Source: Nanobdellota archaeon (GTDB taxonomy: Archaea; Nanobdellota; Nanobdellia; Pacearchaeales; GW2011-AR1). From it: a DNA stretch of 32,000 bases. Made by a program: the position numbers and the translations under genes. Positions 17,512-32,000 of this stretch are shown in pieces; positions within the stretch are counted from its first letter, which is position 1, and every line of letters starts with the position of its first letter. A model generated the notes under the pieces. The model made no database searches. It was not told the origin of the DNA and saw only the letters and a list, made by a program, of their open reading frames with translations. Where the stretch lies: positions 12,725 to 44,724 of the forward strand of contig JAHIHG010000039.1 of assembly GCA_018898425.1 (NCBI GenBank). The letters are read 5' to 3'.

Positions 17512-19800
17512 TCAAATCTTCCTCTTCTTAACTTCAGTATTCAACCATTTCTGCCATTCTGGAAAAACTCTTTTAGACAAAGGTAATCCAATTTCTTTAA
17601 TTATTTTTTCAGAAATTTTATGAAACTCATAATTTGCTAATGAATTAAAACCAGCCTCTAAAAGATTATTATCCCCAGTTAAATTAGACACATTAACAAG
17701 CTCTTTTTTTATCATTGCTCTTAAAAGAATATTATCATAAACCGCATCCCAGTTTCCTGCCCACCCCTTTACATTAGAAGCAATATCTTTTATTATCTCG
17801 CTATCTCCATTAATTAAATCATCACTTGGTTCTAATTCATCTTTTTCCACATTATATCTCATTAAATCCACAAAACCTTTTTCTTCAAGAGGATCTTTTT
17901 TCCAGTGCTTTCTTACCTCAGCTAATTGCAGCATTCTTCTCCATGAATGAAGCCCGTCAGGAGATTTTATTGGATTGCAAACAGTAATTATATCTGTTGC
18001 CTTAAAACTAGTAGCAGGCACTTCTAAATCATTTACAACCCTGTCAAAAACACCATAAGGTGAAGCTCCGTGAATTGTTCCTGCAACAACATTAGCCAGT
18101 GCTCCAACCCTCATTGCCTCATACAAAGCCTTGGCTTCAACACTTCTTACTTCCCCTAAAATTAAACAACTATCTCCTAATCTTAAACTTGTTCTTATTC
18201 CATCATCTGCTGAAACTTCTGAAGTAGTTTTTAACAAGGCAGAACGAACCTTCATCCTTAAAATATCATAATTAAGTTTTCTTAAGGCATTAACAGGAAG
18301 TTCCAAAGTATCCTCTATAACAATAATTCTAAATTTAGGAATAATTTCCAACATTAAGCTTCCAAGAAGAGATGTTTTACCAGAACTTCTTGTTCCAGAA
18401 ACAAGCAAGGTTCTTGAGCCACTTATTAAAAAACTCAATAAACCAGCAGCAAAAGGATTAATCATTTTATTTTTTATAAACAAAGGTAGGGTCCATGGCT
18501 CTTCTCTGTGTCTTCTAATAGCATAAGCCAACCCATCAGGAGAAAGAGGTCTTTGAATTATTGCAATTCTTGCTCTTATATTTCCTATTGATAATTGGGT
18601 ATCTAAAATAGGATTTGCTTCATCAAGAGGTCTTCCAGAAATCATTCTAAACTTTGCTGCCCAGGAATCTACATCTTCCTGGCTTGGAATAATATTTGTC
18701 AGACATTCATCATAATCCTGATGTCTTGCAAAAACCTGAGTCAATGGAATAGGGGCATTTAAAGCAATATCCTGAAGTTTTTTATCTTGAAGAAGAACTT
18801 CAATAAGTCCAAAACCAATTGTATTTCTCACAAGAATAGTCGCAAGTTTATTTAAATCAGAATAATTTATCTTAATTGCTTTTGTTTGAGCTAAATCCTG
18901 TATCAAATCCTTGGACACATTAAAAAAAACCTGCCTTGTTCTTTCAGTATCTATAAATTCTTCTGCTTTTGGTTGGTGTTCAATTAAAACATTTCTTGCC
19001 AGATTTAAAAGCATGCTATGATCCTCACTCAAAGAATTTTCTGGAGGATTTAAATGATAAATAAATTTTGATTCATTTTGCTTTTTCAAGATAGTCACCC
19101 AAGATTCATCAGAATCCATTCCTGAAATTTTATACTGGTCAATAATTTCTGCATCTTCTGGCAAATCCAAAACAAGCCTAGTAAAAGTAAAATTAGGAAT
19201 TACATCTGGTTTGAAAATACGATTATAAATCTCCCTGTCTCTTTTTTCATAATCTCTCATAAAAGATAAAGAAGTTTGAATCAGTTTTGTATTCTCAATT
19301 AACTTAAAAATCCTCTCTAAAAAATTTATATAGTTTTTTTGATCTGTTTTAAACTGAGTATCTATTTTTTCTAAAAAAATTTTTTCTTCAATAACAAGTT
19401 TTTTCATATCAGAATAAGCAGAAATAGGATCTCTTTTTAATAAAAAAAGAAAAGAAAAAATATCATTGTATCTTTTAGAAAAAAATTGCTCAACATTAGT
19501 AATTAATTTTTCCTGGGACAAAATCTTTTCCTGCCTGATTAAAAAAACATAAAGCTGAGCAATTTCCAAAAGCAAAAAGGTTTCATTAGAATCATAATTA
19601 TAATTTTTTTGCTGAACAAGAACAATTCTTGAAACATTTGGATTTTCAACTAAGGCATCAATTGTCCTTTCCATAATTTCGGGATAATCAGAAATACTTG
19701 GCACATAAGGAGCCCCAAGATAATTAATATAAAGAATATCTTCTTCCCCCTCTCTTTGCACCTCGTAAGAATACAAGGGTTTTTCTTTTTTAAATTGCAT
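17512..19800 (-). CDS. Type II/IV secretion-family ATPase (FlaI/GspE/VirB11-like) with long N-terminal extension
   Basis: Walker A in the segment LVSGTRSSGKTSLLGSLM, Asp box/Walker B RIIVIEDTLEL, and downstream LILGEVRSVEA and GTIHGASP motifs typical of this family. Confidence 0.85.
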   Translation of the reverse strand: MQFKKEKPLYSYEVQREGEEDILYINYLGAPYVPSISDYPEIMERTIDALVENPNVSRIVLVQQKNYNYDSNETFLLLEIAQLYVFLIRQEKILSQEKLITNVEQFFSKRYNDIFSFLFLLKRDPISAYSDMKKLVIEEKIFLEKIDTQFKTDQKNYINFLERIFKLIENTKLIQTSLSFMRDYEKRDREIYNRIFKPDVIPNFTFTRLVLDLPEDAEIIDQYKISGMDSDESWVTILKKQNESKFIYHLNPPENSLSEDHSMLLNLARNVLIEHQPKAEEFIDTERTRQVFFNVSKDLIQDLAQTKAIKINYSDLNKLATILVRNTIGFGLIEVLLQDKKLQDIALNAPIPLTQVFARHQDYDECLTNIIPSQEDVDSWAAKFRMISGRPLDEANPILDTQLSIGNIRARIAIIQRPLSPDGLAYAIRRHREEPWTLPLFIKNKMINPFAAGLLSFLISGSRTLLVSGTRSSGKTSLLGSLMLEIIPKFRIIVIEDTLELPVNALRKLNYDILRMKVRSALLKTTSEVSADDGIRTSLRLGDSCLILGEVRSVEAKALYEAMRVGALANVVAGTIHGASPYGVFDRVVNDLEVPATSFKATDIITVCNPIKSPDGLHSWRRMLQLAEVRKHWKKDPLEEKGFVDLMRYNVEKDELEPSDDLINGDSEIIKDIASNVKGWAGNWDAVYDNILLRAMIKKELVNVSNLTGDNNLLEAGFNSLANYEFHKISEKIIKEIGLPLSKRVFPEWQKWLNTEVKKRKI

Positions 19801-25346: not shown

Positions 25347-28300
25347 ATGCCAGAAAAATTTCTACAAAATATAATCCCAAGGGAATATCAAAACAAAATA
25401 TTCAAAACATGTTCAGAAAAAAATTGTTTGGTTGTATTGCCCACTGGATTAGGAAAAACCCTAATTGCATTAATGCTTACAATAAGAAGAATGAGGGAGT
25501 TTCCTGGAGAAAAAATATTATTTCTTGCCCCTACAAAACCACTTATTCAACAGCACTTAATTTCTTTTAAAAAATATCTTCCAGAATTATTTGGAGACAT
25601 GCAATTATTTACTGGTATGGTAAAAGCAGAACAAAGAAAAAAAATATGGCAGACAGCGGATATAATTTTTTCAACCCCCCAATGTGTAGACGGAAGCTCA
25701 ATAATATTTACAAAAGATGGTCCTATTAAAATAAAAGAATTTCTCAATAAATTTAAATTTAAAAAACAGATATATGGAAAGAAAAAAGCCTTTGTTGCAG
25801 ATATAAAAGAAAAAGTGTTGGGCTTTGATGGGGAAAAAATTAGATTTGTGCATGCGAAAAAAGCATGGAAATTGCCTGCAGAAAAATTAATCTCTTTTAA
25901 AACTGAATTGGGGAACCATTTAACATGCACTCCAGAACACCCCCTCCTTACAATTAATGGTAATGGGGACTTAAACTGGATAAACGCAGAAGATTTAAAA
26001 CAAGGGGATTATATAGCTTCGATAAATAAAATTTCAATAAATAAAAATGAAAATCATCTTTATCTTTTATTAAAGAATTCGAAATTAAAGATAGCAGATA
26101 AAAATCTAACATTACAATTATTGAAGAAGATAAAACAAAATAAGAAATTCTATAAAAATATAAGAAAATTTTCAAAATTTAGATATAACTTTATGCCTTT
26201 AAAACAATTCTTAAATCTATCCAAAAAATTAAATTTTGAACTTCCAAATGAGATAACTGTAACCGATTGGACTGGAAAAAGCACTCCAATAAAAATACCT
26301 AAATTCGTAAACAGAAAAATAAGTTATATCTTGGGGGCAATGTTAGGGGATGGCCACTTGGGAAATAGAAAAGGACATGGCGGTGAAGTAGTATTCTCAG
26401 ATTTAGGATCAGAAAAAAGAATGGAATATTTTAGGAAAGAAATCTCTAAAGTTTTTGGGATAAAAATGAAAAAAGATCAAAGAAAAGGATTAATTAGTTA
26501 TAACAATGCATTATCTGAAGTTCTTTCAAATTTGGGAGTTCCAAAAGGTAATAAAGCAAAAAAAATAAGAATCCCAAAATTTATTTTTTTCAGCTCCAAC
26601 AAATGTATAACTAGTTTTATTAAAGGAATTTTTGATACAGATGGAAGTGCGAGTAAACATTCTATAAGCATATTTAGTGCAAGTAAAAAATTTATAAATG
26701 ATATGAAGTGGCTTTTTCTAAAAATAGGTATAAAAGGCAATATTGAAGAAAGAAAAAATTTCGGGAATATAAGGGGGAGAAAAATTAAAGAAAGCGTCAT
26801 ATACACTTTTAGATTTTCAGGGAGAAAACAAATTGAAGAATTTTTAAAAACATGTGATCCTGAACAAAGCAAATGTGAAAAATTGATAAATATGCTTAAT
26901 AATACAAAAAAACCTTACACAAGATCTAAAAAAATCATCCCCGTACCAGAATTATTAAAAAAAATATACAAATTAAATAAAAATAAATTCCCTTATTATT
27001 TAACTTCATGTTTTTCTGTTGATAATCTAAAAAAAATAACTACTTTATGTAAATGTGAAAAAACAAATAAACTCAAAGAAATATTAAACCTTCCAATAAG
27101 ATGGACAAAAATTAAAAAAATAGAAACTAAAAAAGAAAAAACCTTAACTTATGATTTAACTGTTGAAAAAGAACATAATTTCATCACAAATTTCATAATA
27201 AGTCACAATACTATAGCTAATGATTTAAGAGCAGGAAGATATAATTTAAAAGATGTGAGCCTTTTAATTGAAGATGAAGCGCACAGATGCATTAAAAATT
27301 ATGATTACAATTATGTTGCTCAGCAATATAAAAAACAGGCAAACAACCAGAGAATTCTTGGTTTAACAGCATCTCCTGGAAATGACTTATCCAAAATAAA
27401 AGATATTTGTAAAAACCTCTCAATACAAGAAGTTGAACTAAGAACAAGAGATAGTGGAGATGTTAAAAAATACCTGCAAAAACTAGAATTTGAAAAAATA
27501 ATCCTGGATTTCCCTCCTGAACTTGAAGAAATAAGACATATATTGTTAAAATTATATAACCAATATGTGGATGAATTAAAATCCAGAAGAGTCTTATTCA
27601 AGCCGGCATCAAAAATAAACCTGATAAATCTTCAAAAAGAATTAATGGCTAGTTTGGCTAGAGGAAATAAAAATTATAATTATTTATTGGGTGTAAGTGC
27701 CTGTGCGCAGGCAGTAAAAATCCAGCATGCATTAGAACTTTTAGAAACCCAAACTCTTGAAAGTTTTAATAAATATTTAAAAAAATTATTTAGCCAGGCA
27801 GCAAAAAAACAAAGCAAAGGTGTTGTAAAACTAGTAGCAAGGCAGGAATTTAATTTTATTTATATGCAATCAAATGAGTTATTAGCAAAAAATTTTGAAC
27901 ATCCAAAACTGGAAAAAATAATTGAAATAATAAAAAAAGAACAAAGCAAAAATGAAAAATTGAGAATTATTGTATTTACTCAATTCAGAGACACTGCAAC
28001 TATAATTTCTAAGAAATTAAACAAACTCAAGGGCATAAAAGCAAAAGTTTTTATTGGACAAGCAAAAAAAGAAGGAATTGGCTTGAATCAAAAACAGCAA
28101 AAAAAAATAATACAGGAATTCTCTGATGGAGAAATAAATATTTTATGTGCAACATGCATCGCGGAAGAAGGTTTGGATATATGTGAAACAAGCCATGTTA
28201 TATTTTATGAAAGTATTCCGTCAGCTATCAGAGTCATCCAACGGCGTGGACGTACTGCAAGGATGAATAAAGGAAAATTAATAATGTTAATAACAAAAGG

Positions 28301-28424
28301 AACACGGGATGAAGCATTTTATTATATTTCCAAATCTAGAGAAAAGAAAATGCACACTTCAATAGAACAAATAAATCAAGAATTTAAAAACAATAAAATA
28401 GAATTTCAAAAGAAGTTAGAATGA
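25347..28424 (+). CDS. hef: Hef-type (FANCM-like) superfamily 2 helicase, interrupted in-frame by an intein; helicase part only
   Basis: Motif I LPTGLGKT. FSTPQ is followed by Cys at 25683. The extein resumes with TIANDLRAGRYNLKDVSLLIEDEAHRC (motif II DEAH), and motif VI is QRRGRTAR. The spliced junction ...STPQ-TIANDL... matches the canonical Hef ATPQTIENDL. Confidence 0.85.
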   Translation: MPEKFLQNIIPREYQNKIFKTCSEKNCLVVLPTGLGKTLIALMLTIRRMREFPGEKILFLAPTKPLIQQHLISFKKYLPELFGDMQLFTGMVKAEQRKKIWQTADIIFSTPQCVDGSSIIFTKDGPIKIKEFLNKFKFKKQIYGKKKAFVADIKEKVLGFDGEKIRFVHAKKAWKLPAEKLISFKTELGNHLTCTPEHPLLTINGNGDLNWINAEDLKQGDYIASINKISINKNENHLYLLLKNSKLKIADKNLTLQLLKKIKQNKKFYKNIRKFSKFRYNFMPLKQFLNLSKKLNFELPNEITVTDWTGKSTPIKIPKFVNRKISYILGAMLGDGHLGNRKGHGGEVVFSDLGSEKRMEYFRKEISKVFGIKMKKDQRKGLISYNNALSEVLSNLGVPKGNKAKKIRIPKFIFFSSNKCITSFIKGIFDTDGSASKHSISIFSASKKFINDMKWLFLKIGIKGNIEERKNFGNIRGRKIKESVIYTFRFSGRKQIEEFLKTCDPEQSKCEKLINMLNNTKKPYTRSKKIIPVPELLKKIYKLNKNKFPYYLTSCFSVDNLKKITTLCKCEKTNKLKEILNLPIRWTKIKKIETKKEKTLTYDLTVEKEHNFITNFIISHNTIANDLRAGRYNLKDVSLLIEDEAHRCIKNYDYNYVAQQYKKQANNQRILGLTASPGNDLSKIKDICKNLSIQEVELRTRDSGDVKKYLQKLEFEKIILDFPPELEEIRHILLKLYNQYVDELKSRRVLFKPASKINLINLQKELMASLARGNKNYNYLLGVSACAQAVKIQHALELLETQTLESFNKYLKKLFSQAAKKQSKGVVKLVARQEFNFIYMQSNELLAKNFEHPKLEKIIEIIKKEQSKNEKLRIIVFTQFRDTATIISKKLNKLKGIKAKVFIGQAKKEGIGLNQKQQKKIIQEFSDGEINILCATCIAEEGLDICETSHVIFYESIPSAIRVIQRRGRTARMNKGKLIMLITKGTRDEAFYYISKSREKKMHTSIEQINQEFKNNKIEFQKKLE
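25683..27209 (+). mobile_element. Hef intein (509 codons) with LAGLIDADG homing-endonuclease domain
   Basis: Starts CVDGSSIIF and ends ...NFIISHN, followed by Thr. LAGLIDADG-type motifs ILGAMLGDGHLG and FIKGIFDTDGSAS. Confidence 0.85.
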
Positions 28425-29194
28425 TTGTAAAAGAAATAGAAAATATATTTGTAAAAAAAGTTTCCAAAAACAAAAAACAATTTCCAAAACCAAAAATAAC
28501 CATAGATTACAGGGAAAAAAATTCATTAGTGATATCTAAACTAATTAAGCTTGGTTTTGAGACAGAAATCAAAGAACTCAAAATTGGAGATTATATTGTA
28601 AAAAATACAATAATAGAGAGAAAAACTGTTTCAGATTTTATTTCTTCAATGATAAACCAAAGATTGCATCAACAAATTAAAGACTTGCAACAATGTGAAA
28701 ACAAACTTTTAATTATTGAAGGAATTGAAGAACAAGAATTATATAATGATTATGATGAATCTTTTCACAACTATGCGATTTCACAAGAGGCAATTAGAAA
28801 TCGCCCTGCAGAGTTTCGAGGAAAGTTGAAGAAAACCAAGGGGTTGTCTTCAAATGCAATAAGGGGTTTTTTACTCTCTATAACTCTCAAACATAAAATA
28901 CCAATAATTTTTACAAAAAATCCAGAAGATACTGCTAAATTTATTTCAGTATTATCAAACAAGAAATCAACAGAAATATCCCTGAATTTTAACAAAAAAC
29001 CAAAAACCAAAAAAGAACAACTGCAGTTTATTCTAGAAGGTTTTCCTGGAATAGGCCCAAAAACATCAAAAAAACTTTTAAGTGAATTTAAATCAGTTAA
29101 AAATATAATTAATGCATCTGAAAAAGAGCTTAAAAAAATACTTGGAAAAAAAGCAGAAATTGTAAAAAAAATTATAGAAGAAAAATATGATTAA
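28421..29194 (+). CDS. xpf: XPF/ERCC4-family structure-specific nuclease with C-terminal (HhH)2
   Basis: IDYREKNS...GDYIVKNTIIERKTVSDF (the GDxnERKxxxD nuclease motif). C-terminal FILEGFPGIGPKTSKKLLSEFKSVKNIINASEKEL. Its ATG overlaps the hef stop (ATGA at 28421-28424). Confidence 0.8.
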   Translation: MIVKEIENIFVKKVSKNKKQFPKPKITIDYREKNSLVISKLIKLGFETEIKELKIGDYIVKNTIIERKTVSDFISSMINQRLHQQIKDLQQCENKLLIIEGIEEQELYNDYDESFHNYAISQEAIRNRPAEFRGKLKKTKGLSSNAIRGFLLSITLKHKIPIIFTKNPEDTAKFISVLSNKKSTEISLNFNKKPKTKKEQLQFILEGFPGIGPKTSKKLLSEFKSVKNIINASEKELKKILGKKAEIVKKIIEEKYD

Positions 29195-29508
29195 ATTAAA
29201 ACTGTATCAAAATTAATATAAACTGCTCGGGGGTTGTTCCCCATGTCATAAGCCCCTATTTTTTCATTACTATCTAAAACAAATGCATTCACTTCAAGAG
29301 GCAAATTCTTATTTATTTTATCAATAAAAACTTCTCGATGAAATGGATTTCCACCATACACTAAAATGTATTCTTTTCCTAAAGGATTTCTAAAAGTTCT
29401 ATAATTTTCAGAAAATTCTTTTGCAATACTTTTTGCATGTTCTTCTAAAAGATTATTTATCTTTGGATTTAATTTTTTATACAAATTTACCATAAAATAA
29501 AATCTCAA
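29191..29508 (-). CDS. Hypothetical protein, last gene of the DGR-proximal same-strand cluster
   Basis: 105-aa ORF (likely start MVNLYKK at 29493). No recognised motif. Confidence 0.35.
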   Translation of the reverse strand: MRFYFMVNLYKKLNPKINNLLEEHAKSIAKEFSENYRTFRNPLGKEYILVYGGNPFHREVFIDKINKNLPLEVNAFVLDSNEKIGAYDMGNNPRAVYINFDTVLI

Positions 29509-29596: not shown

Positions 29597-30118
29597 TTAA
29601 TTTAAAGAATAATTTTCAAGAGCTTCATAAAAAGGCTTATCAGAAGTCAGGATAGATTTTTTTAATTTAAAGCACTCAATAGCAAAATTTATTTTTTTAA
29701 TTTTTATTTTCTTTAATTCTTCTAAAAATCTTTTCTTATCTTCAATCTTCTTAACCCTTGCAATTGTAATATGACTCATGAATCTTTTTTCAGGTTGAAA
29801 AAAATCCTTTAATTTATTATCAATTTCTTTTTGTAATTCTTCACAATTAGTTAAATGCAACCAAATAATACGAATAAAATTTTTTGAAAAAACCCCAATC
29901 TCATCAATTTCTGCCCGGAATTTTTTAAACTTAATTTCTCTTAATTTATCCTTAATCAATCCAGTTTTTTTCTCATCTATTTCTCCTAAAAATTTCAAAG
30001 TCAGGTGTAAATTTTCCAATTCAGTTTTTTTACCTATAAAAAAAGGTAATTTATTCTGAATTTTTTCAATCTCTATTAAAATCTCTTTTGGAAAATCTAT
30101 TGAAATAAATGTTCTCAT
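29597..30118 (-). CDS. thpR: 2H-phosphoesterase: RNA 2',3'-cyclic phosphodiesterase / 2'-5' RNA ligase family (ThpR/LigT)
   Basis: Two H-x-T-x motifs (LHLTLKFLGE and SHITIARV). A start at MRTFISIDFP (ATG 30118-30116) matches the usual family N-terminus and overlaps the RT stop TGA (30117-30115). Confidence 0.8.
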   Translation of the reverse strand: MRTFISIDFPKEILIEIEKIQNKLPFFIGKKTELENLHLTLKFLGEIDEKKTGLIKDKLREIKFKKFRAEIDEIGVFSKNFIRIIWLHLTNCEELQKEIDNKLKDFFQPEKRFMSHITIARVKKIEDKKRFLEELKKIKIKKINFAIECFKLKKSILTSDKPFYEALENYSLN

Positions 30119-31140
30119 ATAATTAAAAAACAACTAAGATTTTTAATAATTTTGTTTGTTAAATTGTGGCTATTCGCCCATTTAGCATAAGCTTGCCAAC
30201 CTTGAAAAATCTCTAAAAATTTACAAGAATCTATTTTACATTCATTAAACAATTTTATTTTTCTTTCCATATTTCGAACATTTCTCTTTCTTAATAATTT
30301 ATAATAGTAAAAATTTCTAAAACCGACAAAATCAATGCCCATTGAAAGATTAATCACTCTAGACTTCTCAGGATGAAGCACAAGTTTCAATTCCTTTATT
30401 AAAAAATCCTGAATTTGCCCTCTCCAAATCTTGAGTTGCTCTTTAGATTTAGAAAGAATAACAAAATCATCAACATAACGTATATAATATTTAATTTTCA
30501 GTTTATGCTTCACAAATTGATCAAGTTTGTTAAGATATACATTAGCAAAAAATTGGCTTGTTAAATTTCCAAGAGGCATACCCTTTCCATTACTAAATTG
30601 TGATTCTCTTTCAATTATACATTTAATCAACCAAATAACTTTTTTATCTTTAATCTTTCTTTGAATAATATTTAATAAAATATCATGATTAATTTCTTGA
30701 AAATAATGTTTTATATCTGCTTTGAAACAATAAGCTTCTGAGGTTAGGTTGTTAGTTATTTTTTTCTGAAACTTTGCAAATCTTTTAATTGCAAACAAAC
30801 TTCCTTTATTTTTTCTGTTTGCACAATTATCTTCTATAAAAGTTTTATCAAATATAAATTCAAGAATATTGATGATAGTATGATGAATAACTCTGTCTCT
30901 AAAATCAGCTTTTGAAATTTTGCGAGTCTTTGGGTCTCTTAAAATAAATGTCTTTAAGACACCTGGATTATAAGTTTGATTCTTTAATTCTTTATAAAGC
31001 TGAAATAAATTCTCCATAAGATTTTGTTCAAATTCAAGAACATAATTTTTTTTAGTTTTTCCTTTTCTTGCTTTTCTCCATGCTAAAGTAAGATTTTCTA
31101 AAGAAATTATATTAGGATAAATATTTTTATAACTTTTCAT
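30115..31140 (-). CDS. Diversity-generating retroelement (DGR) reverse transcriptase
   Basis: 341 aa. Motifs ILRDPKTRKISKADFRDRVIHH, ADIKHYFQEINH, the DGR-typical GMPLGNLTSQFFANVYL and YIRYVDDFVILS. No maturase or endonuclease domain. The TR lies 34 nt upstream. Confidence 0.9.
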   Translation of the reverse strand: MKSYKNIYPNIISLENLTLAWRKARKGKTKKNYVLEFEQNLMENLFQLYKELKNQTYNPGVLKTFILRDPKTRKISKADFRDRVIHHTIINILEFIFDKTFIEDNCANRKNKGSLFAIKRFAKFQKKITNNLTSEAYCFKADIKHYFQEINHDILLNIIQRKIKDKKVIWLIKCIIERESQFSNGKGMPLGNLTSQFFANVYLNKLDQFVKHKLKIKYYIRYVDDFVILSKSKEQLKIWRGQIQDFLIKELKLVLHPEKSRVINLSMGIDFVGFRNFYYYKLLRKRNVRNMERKIKLFNECKIDSCKFLEIFQGWQAYAKWANSHNLTNKIIKNLSCFLII

Positions 31141-31173
31141 TTTGCGTTTGGAAAATAAAGTCCTGGATGAAAA

Positions 31174-31259
31174 CTATTCCGAGACTAGAATTCCTGTTAG
31201 AAGAATTCCTGTTGCAATTGAGGTTAGCCCTGTCAGAGTCAGCATTAAACCTCGCGACC
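31174..31259 (-). repeat. DGR template repeat (TR), 86 nt
   Basis: Aligns without gaps to 31510-31595 (offset 336). Read in the VR frame it encodes VARFNADSDRANLNCNRNSSNRNSSLGI, rich in AAC/AAT codons. Confidence 0.9.
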
Positions 31260-31463
31260 AGTATAGCCAATTTACCAATTACCACCACAATTTCAATTTT
31301 CACAAAAGCTACTAATTGTTATTATTGAATTTTATGACTTAAAATAAACCTTAATAATGTGCTAATAAACTGACGTGTAGTCCTCTTTTGCTTTTCTTGC
31401 TCAAGAAAAAACAAAATCTCCAGGACAGAACATAGAATAAAATTTTGTTTAAAAAGTTTCAGT

Positions 31464-32000
31464 TTATTTCATTTCTCCAGCGAGCAAAACCTTGCTCGTG
31501 CCTACGGCACGTACCCCGAGACCAGAACCCCTGCCAGAAGAATACCTGTCGCAATAGAGGTAAGCCCTAGCAGAGCCAGCATAAAACCTCGCGACCCTTT
31601 CATCTAATTTATTTGGCTTTGAATTTAATCTCCAGACATAACAATCAGTTTTATTAATAAACTGAAAAACATTATTTATTTTTCCGGCATCTTTTTCTCC
31701 AAGCAATAATTCTAAATATGATTTTGGAGAAACATCTTTAATAAATCCATCTTCCCCAACAACATCTCCTTTTAAAGAATATTCATCTGACATCTTATAA
31801 TTATGAATAACTTCATCTTTTGCTTTTGGAAAATATTTTATTCTTGTTAGGGTGTTTAACCAATTCTTTCTTAATTTTTCCTGAATAAAATCCCTGACAT
31901 CTGTATTCCCTGAATCTTGGACAGCACTTAGAATTGAATAAAATAATCTTGAATCAGGACAATAAAATCCTCCTTTTTCTTTTGACTCTTTTGAAAGTGC
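31464..32000 (-). CDS. DGR target protein carrying the C-terminal variable repeat; 5' end beyond the window
   Basis: The track lists a 109-aa ORF (31464..31793). By-eye translation shows the same frame stays open with no stop from 32000 to 31794 (ALSKESKEKGGFYCPDSRLFYSILSAVQDSGNTDVRDF...HNYK-MSDEY). The C-terminus RVARFYAGSARAYLYCDRYSSGRGSGLGVRAV resembles the variable region of C-type-lectin/FGE-fold DGR targets. Confidence 0.75.
   Translation of the reverse strand, partial: ALSKESKEKGGFYCPDSRLFYSILSAVQDSGNTDVRDFIQEKLRKNWLNTLTRIKYFPKAKDEVIHNYKMSDEYSLKGDVVGEDGFIKDVSPKSYLELLLGEKDAGKINNVFQFINKTDCYVWRLNSKPNKLDERVARFYAGSARAYLYCDRYSSGRGSGLGVRAVGTSKVLLAGEMK
31480..31510 (-). promoter_or_regulatory. 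Two adjacent GC-rich hairpins immediately 3' of VR (candidate IMH/cruciform region)
   Basis: CGAGCAA-aacc-TTGCTCG (31480-31497, 7-bp stem, 4-nt loop) and CGTGCC-tac-GGCACG (31496-31510, 6-bp stem). Both are absent from the TR side. Confidence 0.5.
31510..31595 (-). repeat. DGR variable repeat (VR), 86 nt
   Basis: There are 14 substitutions relative to TR, all at coding-strand TR adenines (14 of 24 A positions). In addition there is one internal non-A mismatch (31232 vs 31568) and one terminal mismatch. Confidence 0.9.

Follow-up and report, generated by a model that had tools for sequence, protein, structure and literature searches.

A probable chromosomal diversity-generating retroelement of a DPANN archaeon, with tandem targets of predicted lectin fold and a structured RNA attached to its template repeat

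We analyzed a stretch of 32,000 nucleotides (nt) of DNA from a Nanobdellota archaeon (NCBI GenBank assembly GCA_018898425.1, contig JAHIHG010000039.1), hereinafter called the window. Very likely, the window holds a chromosomal diversity-generating retroelement (DGR) of a DPANN archaeon, which is an ordinary new member of a known and abundant clade of DPANN DGRs. Its coding strand is the minus strand of the window, whose numbering is used for all positions, and on this strand a target gene ending in a variable repeat (VR) is followed by a template repeat (TR) and a reverse transcriptase (RT) gene. An initial annotation, made from the letters of the DNA, had proposed a DGR with this order of parts and with AAY codons as the substrate of mutagenesis, and had pointed out that the class is not new; our analysis bears out the former and agrees with the latter. 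DPANN archaea and organisms of the Candidate Phyla Radiation (CPR) are rich in DGRs, and with the RT having thousands of relatives, the element adds little as a DGR alone. Its value lies in being a clean example of the anatomy of its clade, in which one TR would serve a tandem array of targets with two different scaffolds of predicted lectin fold, a fixed two-base mark distinguishes donor from recipient, and the RNA motif RT-16 is physically linked to the TR irrespective of the position of the RT gene.

The TR (31175-31259, minus strand) and the VR (31512-31596, minus strand) align without gaps over 85 nt at an offset of 337. At this offset 83 of 131 positions match, as against 33 of 131 at the offset of 336 used in the initial annotation; its gap-free repeat and adenine bias thus stand, while its VR coordinates are one base off. 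A repeat search of the window returns the pair as 31179-31274 and 31516-31611. Read on the minus strand, the 85-nt TR contains 24 adenines, and 14 of its 15 mismatches to the VR fall on these: nine are A>G, four A>T and one A>C, the remaining mismatch being a C>T (31232 in the TR, 31569 in the VR). This recount gives numbers identical to the earlier ones, and the peptide readings of the TR and VR, as well as the LGNLTSQ and YVDD motifs reported for the RT, are likewise as claimed. The enrichment of mismatches at adenines is highly significant in a Fisher exact test (p = 6.7e-9 for the 85 nt and 4.8e-8 for the 81-nt core defined below). When each A of the TR is replaced by N, the resulting pattern occurs in the 32-kb window just at the TR and VR sites, with 0 occurrences expected by chance, and hence this search recovers no further VRs within the window. 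The VR codes for residues about 222-250 of a 266-amino-acid (aa) target protein, whereas the TR lies outside the target gene, 34 nt upstream of the start codon of the RT.

The RT gene (30115-31140, minus strand) is an intact open reading frame (ORF) for a protein of 341 aa that matches the Pfam RVT_1 model (E = 2e-21). DGR RTs have the motif [LIV]GxxxSQ where group II intron and retron RTs have QGxxxSP, together with a YxDD catalytic motif, and the LGNLTSQ and YVDD of the window RT belong to the former kind. Its best match among solved structures is 8ub7_A, with 161 bits over the full length, whereas group II RTs reach no more than 74 bits. The numbering of the corresponding residues in 8ub7_A (K29, F66, R74, I76, I181, G182, Q187, D215 and D216) coincides with that of residues published for the Bordetella RT (bRT; bioRxiv 10.1101/2023.10.23.563531), and we therefore take 8ub7_A to be bRT. 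The window RT keeps K29, F66, R74, I76, G182, Q187, D215 and D216, most of which are invariant across the family, while bRT I181 is replaced by Leu (the first residue of LGNLTSQ), consistent with the [LIV]GxxxSQ motif. It is these motifs and the solved-structure match, rather than a formal phylogeny, that assign the protein to the DGR clade of RTs; on the point of affinity, which the initial annotation had put up for checking, the closest solved structure is thus the Bordetella DGR RT and not a group II or retron RT.

The family of the window RT comprises >7,800 proteins at E <= 1e-20, the best of which are 62-70% identical to it, and its named relatives come from Pacearchaeota, Nanoarchaeota, Woesearchaeota and some CPR bacteria. 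By scanning one genome per GTDB species we collected 80 DPANN loci with such RTs (hereinafter the related loci). An adenine-biased TR/VR pair was found in 63 of the 80, and in most of the others the RT lies near a contig end. The usual layout consists of the VR, a gap of 220-500 nt, the TR, a gap of 25-40 nt and the RT, with two to four VRs being present in 13 loci.

The target gene of the window (31464-32000, minus strand) is represented by its 3' part, namely the last 178 codons and the stop: no stop interrupts the frame between 32000 and the stop codon at 31464-31466, the gene is cut by the window end, and full-length relatives of the 178-aa fragment have 263-266 aa. The DGR of the window was thus wrongly called complete. 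A contig from the JGI (L002), the last 605 nt of which are identical (605/605) to window positions 32000-31396, supplies the complete gene (266 aa; L002:1986-2786) and carries a tandem row of four target genes that each end in a VR of their own. These are a partial gene of one kind, which we term type B, and three of another, type A; the window target is the last type A gene of this array and the three other genes lie beyond the window end. Type A proteins have 263-266 aa and type B proteins 267-275 aa (L002:23-2786; L003:678-2307), and both share an N-terminal leader of ~40 aa and a C-terminal VR module, with unrelated regions in the middle. This architecture suggests that VR cassettes are exchanged between genes in a modular fashion. 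The NCBI protein MBU4069745.1, a 178-aa partial sequence from a Nanoarchaeota metagenome-assembled genome (MAG), is identical to the window target fragment.

Logan contigs from different runs (L001, L006, L007, L008 and L011) all begin at window position 31492. The distance from this point to the target stop codon is 30 nt, precisely k-1, which is what a genomic repeat of the 3' end of the gene would produce. We considered whether this contig break, 20 nt from the VR, is a sign of VR heterogeneity and ruled this out, as the k-1 distance from the stop codon fits a branch at the tandem-target repeat. In short-read assemblies the target array is collapsed or rearranged. In two assemblies (L005:7461-8870; L003:54-671) the array is directly preceded by a gene for a 469-aa protein with a Walker-A-like GDTRTGKS motif, for which a Pfam search returned no significant match.

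Comparison of these copies and of independent assemblies points to a DGR that is very probably active at present. All 8 assemblies of the window species that contain the TR have it in identical form, whereas at least 14 distinct VR peptides are found on scaffolds that are 90-100% identical; such a variety of VRs against one invariant TR argues for current activity. When ten VR copies, taken from five contigs, are compared with the single TR, 109 of the 115 mismatches fall on TR adenines. Of the remaining six, three concern the initial base of the repeat in type B genes, i.e., a boundary of homology; a C>T at TR position 28 that occurs in two copies accounts for two, and a C>T at position 40 for the last. 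At the protein level, the varying residues all correspond to TR codons that have A as their first or second base (AAY, GAC, AGG and AGT). The VR is hypervariable between assemblies with identical flanks: for instance, a near-identical strain (L005) has 31 differences from the window over 11,886 aligned nt, and 14 of these fall within the 85-nt VR, all of them at adenine sites. Hence, the restriction of VR variation to positions of TR adenines, for which the initial annotation had proposed looking in independent assemblies, is what the assemblies display.

The C>T at TR position 28 (31232/31569) lies beside an A>C and is common to the window VR and that of the first type A gene of L002 (L002:1082), while the two VRs disagree at other adenine sites. 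Such a pattern could come from gene conversion among the paralogues, from retrohoming of partial length or from an error that the RT makes repeatedly.

The two 3'-most A>G changes of the 85-nt alignment differ in nature from the rest. TR positions 82-83 (31178-31177) are AA, and the VRs are non-A at these sites in 10/10 copies (GG in nine and TG in one, that of L005), even though the first site (31178; VR 31515) is a synonymous third codon position. The contrast between GGAAT(A/G)G at the TR end and GGGGT(A/G) at the VR end recurs among the related loci. Given the ten non-A copies and this family-wide contrast, we ruled out 31177-31178 as mutagenized adenines: 12 of the 14 adenine changes that had been attributed to mutagenesis stand as such, and the other two belong to a fixed difference between TR and VR. 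In terms of the Bordetella system, this is best read as a hard-wired difference between donor and recipient, corresponding to the initiation of mutagenic homing (IMH) element and its TR counterpart IMH*. The IMH-like element would be the G+C-rich 3' end of the VR (31514-31522, minus strand; GTCTCGGGG), with GG at 31514-31515 where the TR has AA, and the IMH*-like element the 3' end of the TR (31174-31185, minus strand; GTCTCGGAATAG) with the family-conserved GGAAT(A/G)G motif. With these two changes being a fixed difference, the mutagenized core is therefore 31179-31259. This 81-nt TR core (minus strand; VARFNADSDRANLNCNRNSSNRNSSL) has all its adenines at codon positions 1 or 2, and in the corresponding VR core (31516-31596, minus strand), which is aligned to it without gaps at the offset of 337 and beyond which the homology to the TR extends to 31512, 12 of the 21 TR adenines are altered, in addition to the one C>T.

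A second feature distinguishing the VR from the TR is a G+C-rich hairpin, CGTGCC-GTA-GGCACG (31497-31511, minus strand), directly 3' of the VR and within the target coding sequence, for which no counterpart is present after the TR. Most related loci have an equivalent hairpin, with a G(A/T)A-type loop and a stem of differing sequence, after the VR and none after the TR. In BPP-1 a hairpin/cruciform of this type is known to serve in target recognition (PMC3240598), and a hairpin of this kind has been noted in archaeal DGRs (PMC5006420); by analogy, we read that of the window as a probable target-recognition hairpin/cruciform.

The target is without a Pfam match, both as the fragment and at full length, and the fragment is also without an NCBIfam match; archaeal DGR targets without recognizable domains have likewise been reported (Roux et al. 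2021). Its family has 684 representatives at E <= 0.001 in a library of 50%-identity clusters. Sequence and profile searches of the PDB yielded chance-level matches only, with AvpA, the solved target of an archaeal DGR, not being matched. An AlphaFold2 model from a 79-sequence alignment has a mean predicted local distance difference test score (pLDDT) of 87, rising to about 98 for residues 50-255. When the PDB is searched with this model by Foldseek, every one of the top matches is a C-type lectin domain (MCL, BDCA2, Dectin-2, rhodocetin, Mincle and DEC205), and the highest-ranking one has a probability of 0.99, E = 4.9e-3 and a template modeling (TM) score of 0.51 normalized to the lectin. 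From this moderate similarity we predict that the target adopts a C-type lectin fold that displays the VR.

The gap between VR and TR, where the initial annotation had overlooked a structured RNA, is filled by the RT-16 motif (Rfam RF03019; 31258-31416, minus strand), which matches positions 1-158 of the 158-position model with 99.9 bits against a gathering score of 50. It is the sole Rfam match in the window and ends at the first bases of the TR. RT-16 immediately precedes the TR in 29 of 30 related loci, i.e., in 30 of 31 DGRs with that of the window included. In related loci of the standard layout it ends within a few bases of the TR start in 20/20 cases, and where the TR is on the opposite strand or kilobases from the RT, it is still found directly 5' of the TR in 9/10. 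RT-16 is therefore tied to the TR and not to the RT gene. The motifs RT-1 to RT-19 were described as occurring near RT genes with roles unknown, RT-10 alone being assigned to a DGR, where it corresponds to the TR-RT spacer of BPP-1 (Weinberg et al. 2017, PMC5737381); in the DGR literature within our reach we found no characterization of a DGR RNA architecture with RT-16.

RT-16 and the TR are together enclosed by a further helix that is not part of the Rfam model. Its 5' strand (GUCCUGGAGA; 31417-31426, minus strand) lies just 5' of RT-16 and pairs with a 3' strand (UCAUCCAGGAC; 31160-31170, minus strand) just 3' of the TR; the pairing has an energy of -15.9 kcal/mol and is present in both the minimum-free-energy and the centroid folds. 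Across loci the strands vary in sequence yet stay complementary, as in CUGG/CCAG, UUAG/CUAA, CCCAGC/GCUGGG, CCUCGC/GCGAGG and CUUAGAGC/GCUCUAAG. Over 39 loci, cognate pairs of strands have a mean of -14.8 kcal/mol as against -10.35 +/- 0.43 for shuffled pairings, and 0 of 20000 permutations reach the observed value. The helix is also found in loci with the TR far from the RT. The support for RNA structure comes from Rfam and covariation and not from the folding of a single sequence.

Both strands of this closing helix have alternative partners. In many loci the 5' strand may instead form the P1 stem of the Rfam model by local pairing, and the 3' strand may form a small hairpin after GGAAUAG (in the window, GUUUU-CAUCC-AGGAC); with two alternative local pairings, two conformations are therefore possible. 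The 3' strand of stem P1 in RT-16 (31380-31385, AGGAC before CUACACG) has the same sequence as 31160-31165 (AGGAC), and the two are similar in many related loci. Pairing of the 5' strand with either AGGAC strand would make for a possible conformational switch. The 3' end of the TR and the downstream AGGAC, as well as the GCUA of RT-16 and the U(A/G)G(C/U) of the TR end, are also compatible in sequence; in both cases the two sides are invariant, which makes covariation uninformative, and we put forward these pairings as ideas only.

Several observations weigh against our reading of the locus or of its parts. The similarity of the target to lectins is modest (TM about 0.5 normalized to the lectin length, E = 5e-3); two assemblies (L005 and L010) put a different target copy beside the TR, and some arrays are possibly collapsed or chimeric; the change at TR position 28, shared by two VRs, is not at an adenine; taken as a single sequence, the DGR RNA does not fold more stably than its shuffles (z = -1.05); and variation of the VR within the population is deduced from assemblies and protein clusters rather than reads. 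Moreover, Avd is needed in the Bordetella system and none was found here, although an Avd that is divergent or encoded at a distance may exist. Part of this bears on whether the window merely preserves a fossil DGR that formerly diversified its targets and is now inactive, so that the differences between VR and TR are historical. Variation as it is seen in assemblies is compatible with this, the C>T at TR position 28, shared by two VRs, could reflect ordinary mutations that built up once homing had stopped, and two MAG proteins carry exactly the VR of the window. However, the RT is intact with its catalytic and fidelity-related residues kept, the invariance of the TR in eight assemblies stands against the many VR peptides on near-identical scaffolds from several samples, and a strain differing by ~0.1% elsewhere differs by 16% in the VR, at A sites only, all of which renders a fossil unlikely. 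Another alternative has the RT coming from a group II intron, a retron or a defense RT system, with the repeat being due to chance or a remnant of a duplication. In its favor, the best NCBIfam match of the RT is the group II RT/maturase model TIGR04416, and homologues of the RT are labeled 'retron-type reverse transcriptase' in several database sources. Yet the 147 bits of that match are far under the model cutoff of 300, and the NCBIfam search returned no DGR-RT family for this protein; among solved structures the Bordetella DGR RT, matched along its full length, has over twice the bits of any other; a search of the window with Rfam shows no intron RNA family; and both the adenine bias (p about 1e-8) and the recurrence of the TR/VR arrangement in 63 of 80 homologues speak against a chance repeat, leaving this origin with a very small probability.

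The lack of a detected Avd brings up the gene next to the RT, which the initial annotation had seen as part of an unusual, compact layout of accessory genes. No window ORF of 90 aa or more belongs to an Avd-type family, and a set of 150 small ORFs located up to 3 kb from the RT in the related loci holds no recurrent family. A 105-aa ORF (29191-29508) was considered as an Avd and ruled out, as it has no family match and its homologues are confined to the window species. The adjacent gene codes for a LigT/ThpR 2H-phosphoesterase (29597-30133, minus strand) that overlaps the RT stop codon. Conceivably, it could be a lineage-specific accessory factor of the DGR that, for example, processes a 2'-5'-branched RNA-cDNA intermediate in Avd's stead: the same-strand overlap with the RT (30115-30133, or 4 nt in the contig gene calls) makes co-transcription likely, the two genes adjoin in all 8 contigs of the window species, and a branched product is suggested by the Bordetella DGR, where cDNA synthesis depends on the 2'-OH of an adenosine in the spacer (bioRxiv 10.1101/2023.10.23.563531). 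However, tblastn (E <= 0.01) finds a LigT homologue within 8 kb of the RT in 0/80 related loci, where the genes beside the RT are assorted and unrelated housekeeping genes, and the protein itself passes TIGR02258, the equivalog model of the housekeeping RNA 2',3'-cyclic phosphodiesterase, with 126 bits against a cutoff of 65.7. We accordingly ruled it out as an accessory gene of the DGR; LigT/ThpR is a neighbor rather than a conserved part of the element, a lineage-specific role is very unlikely, and the proposed accessory layout does not hold. Architecture A1, a bare TR-RT core with several targets, is part of Architecture A, which makes up about 29% of DGRs (Wu et al. 2018, PMC5758913). With this share of catalogued DGRs being without an accessory gene, a missing Avd does not exclude membership among the DGRs.

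Taking the locus to be a DGR, its parts may be assembled into a working model. Along the minus strand, the element consists of a tandem array of at least four targets (one type B and three type A), a non-coding RNA unit and the RT gene. Each target gene ends in a VR module of predicted C-type lectin fold followed by the G+C-rich hairpin, and the RNA unit comprises in order the 5' helix strand, the RT-16 domain, the 81-nt TR, GGAAUAG and the 3' helix strand. Upon transcription of the TR unit, the transcript is predicted to fold such that the covarying long-range helix encloses RT-16 plus the TR. The RT would then bind this RNA and copy the TR into cDNA, with priming probably occurring in cis as in the Bordetella phage DGR, and would misincorporate at template adenines. 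The resulting cDNA would replace the VR of one or another target gene, with the direction of transfer being set by the fixed GGGG (VR)/GGAA (TR) difference together with the VR-proximal hairpin, in roles modeled on their Bordetella phage equivalents. The rewriting would thereby stay limited to the binding surface of the lectin-fold proteins.

The prototype for such a comparison is the DGR of the Bordetella phage BPP-1 (mtd-VR / avd / TR / brt). The window element shares with it the adenine-specific transfer from TR to VR, the location of the VR at the 3' end of a target with a (here predicted) C-type lectin fold, the G+C-rich IMH-like end of the VR that is unlike the TR end, and the hairpin just 3' of the VR. 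The homology of the RTs spans the whole protein and includes the [LIV]GxxxSQ and YxDD motifs as well as conserved fingertip and palm residues. In both, the RNA upstream of the TR is able to pair with that downstream of it, a feature of the Bordetella ribonucleoprotein that is predicted for bacterial DGRs too (bioRxiv 10.1101/2023.10.23.563531). The window element differs from BPP-1 in having no detected avd gene, in carrying a ~160-nt RT-16 domain 5' of the TR, between the upstream helix strand and the TR, and in the TR being only 34 nt from the RT start codon. It also differs in having at least four tandem cellular targets as opposed to one phage tail-fiber gene, and in being chromosomal and hosted by an archaeon. 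By analogy to the Bordetella system, the unit formed by RT-16 and the closing helix suggests RNA-based scaffolding in place of Avd. That it replaces the scaffolding by Avd and the 3' spacer RNA throughout the Avd-less DPANN clade is a tentative proposal, which we rate as less probable than not. If true, the RT and an RNA of ~270 nt (31160-31426) would constitute a minimal two-component machine for targeted hypermutation, and the orphan Rfam family RT-16 would gain a function. Should the RT and RNA suffice without Avd, they would make an unusually small module for programmable mutagenesis and a useful comparison for the structures of the Bordetella ribonucleoprotein.

Closer to home, a locus of Nanoarchaeota SCGC AAA011-G17 (L082), from the same superphylum, has an RT about 52% identical to that of the window and the same order of VR, RT-16, TR and RT. 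With the DGRs of Nanoarchaeota and other DPANN archaea the element shares a VR that is near but not at the C-terminus, a hairpin inside the coding sequence, and targets without recognizable domains whose predicted lectin fold is closest to mammalian CLEC-type domains. AvpA is itself closest to mammalian CLEC5A (Handa et al. 2016, PMC5006420). In contrast, the window target is not AvpA-like by sequence, the AvpA motifs being absent from it, and the window species has two target scaffolds, A and B, joined to the common leader and VR module. Architecture A1 of Wu et al. (2018) agrees with the element in the TR being directly upstream of the RT, in the several upstream targets, and in the absence of an avd, HRDC, MSL or CH1 gene; however, that survey describes no RNA domain attached to the TR, whereas here RT-16 is its constant partner. 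As for RT-16 itself, the window sequence matches the whole Rfam model at twice the gathering score; what goes beyond the published motif is its position right against the 5' end of the TR, seen in 30 of 31 DGRs examined, and the additional covarying helix that encloses both RT-16 and the TR.

Elsewhere in the window, a Hef-like DEAD/ResIII helicase gene (25347-28424, plus strand) is split by an intein with a LAGLIDADG homing-endonuclease domain, and overlaps by 4 nt with a gene for an ERCC4/XPF nuclease with helix-hairpin-helix (HhH) motifs (28421-29194, plus strand); from their domains, Hef appears to be split here into a helicase gene and a nuclease gene. A 762-aa protein (17512-19800, minus strand) has a type II/IV secretion ATPase (T2SSE) domain, and an ORF with a prepilin-peptidase-type Peptidase_A24 domain is also present in the window. 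These two domains suggest that a pilus or archaellum-like surface apparatus might be encoded in the same region as the variable proteins of predicted lectin fold.

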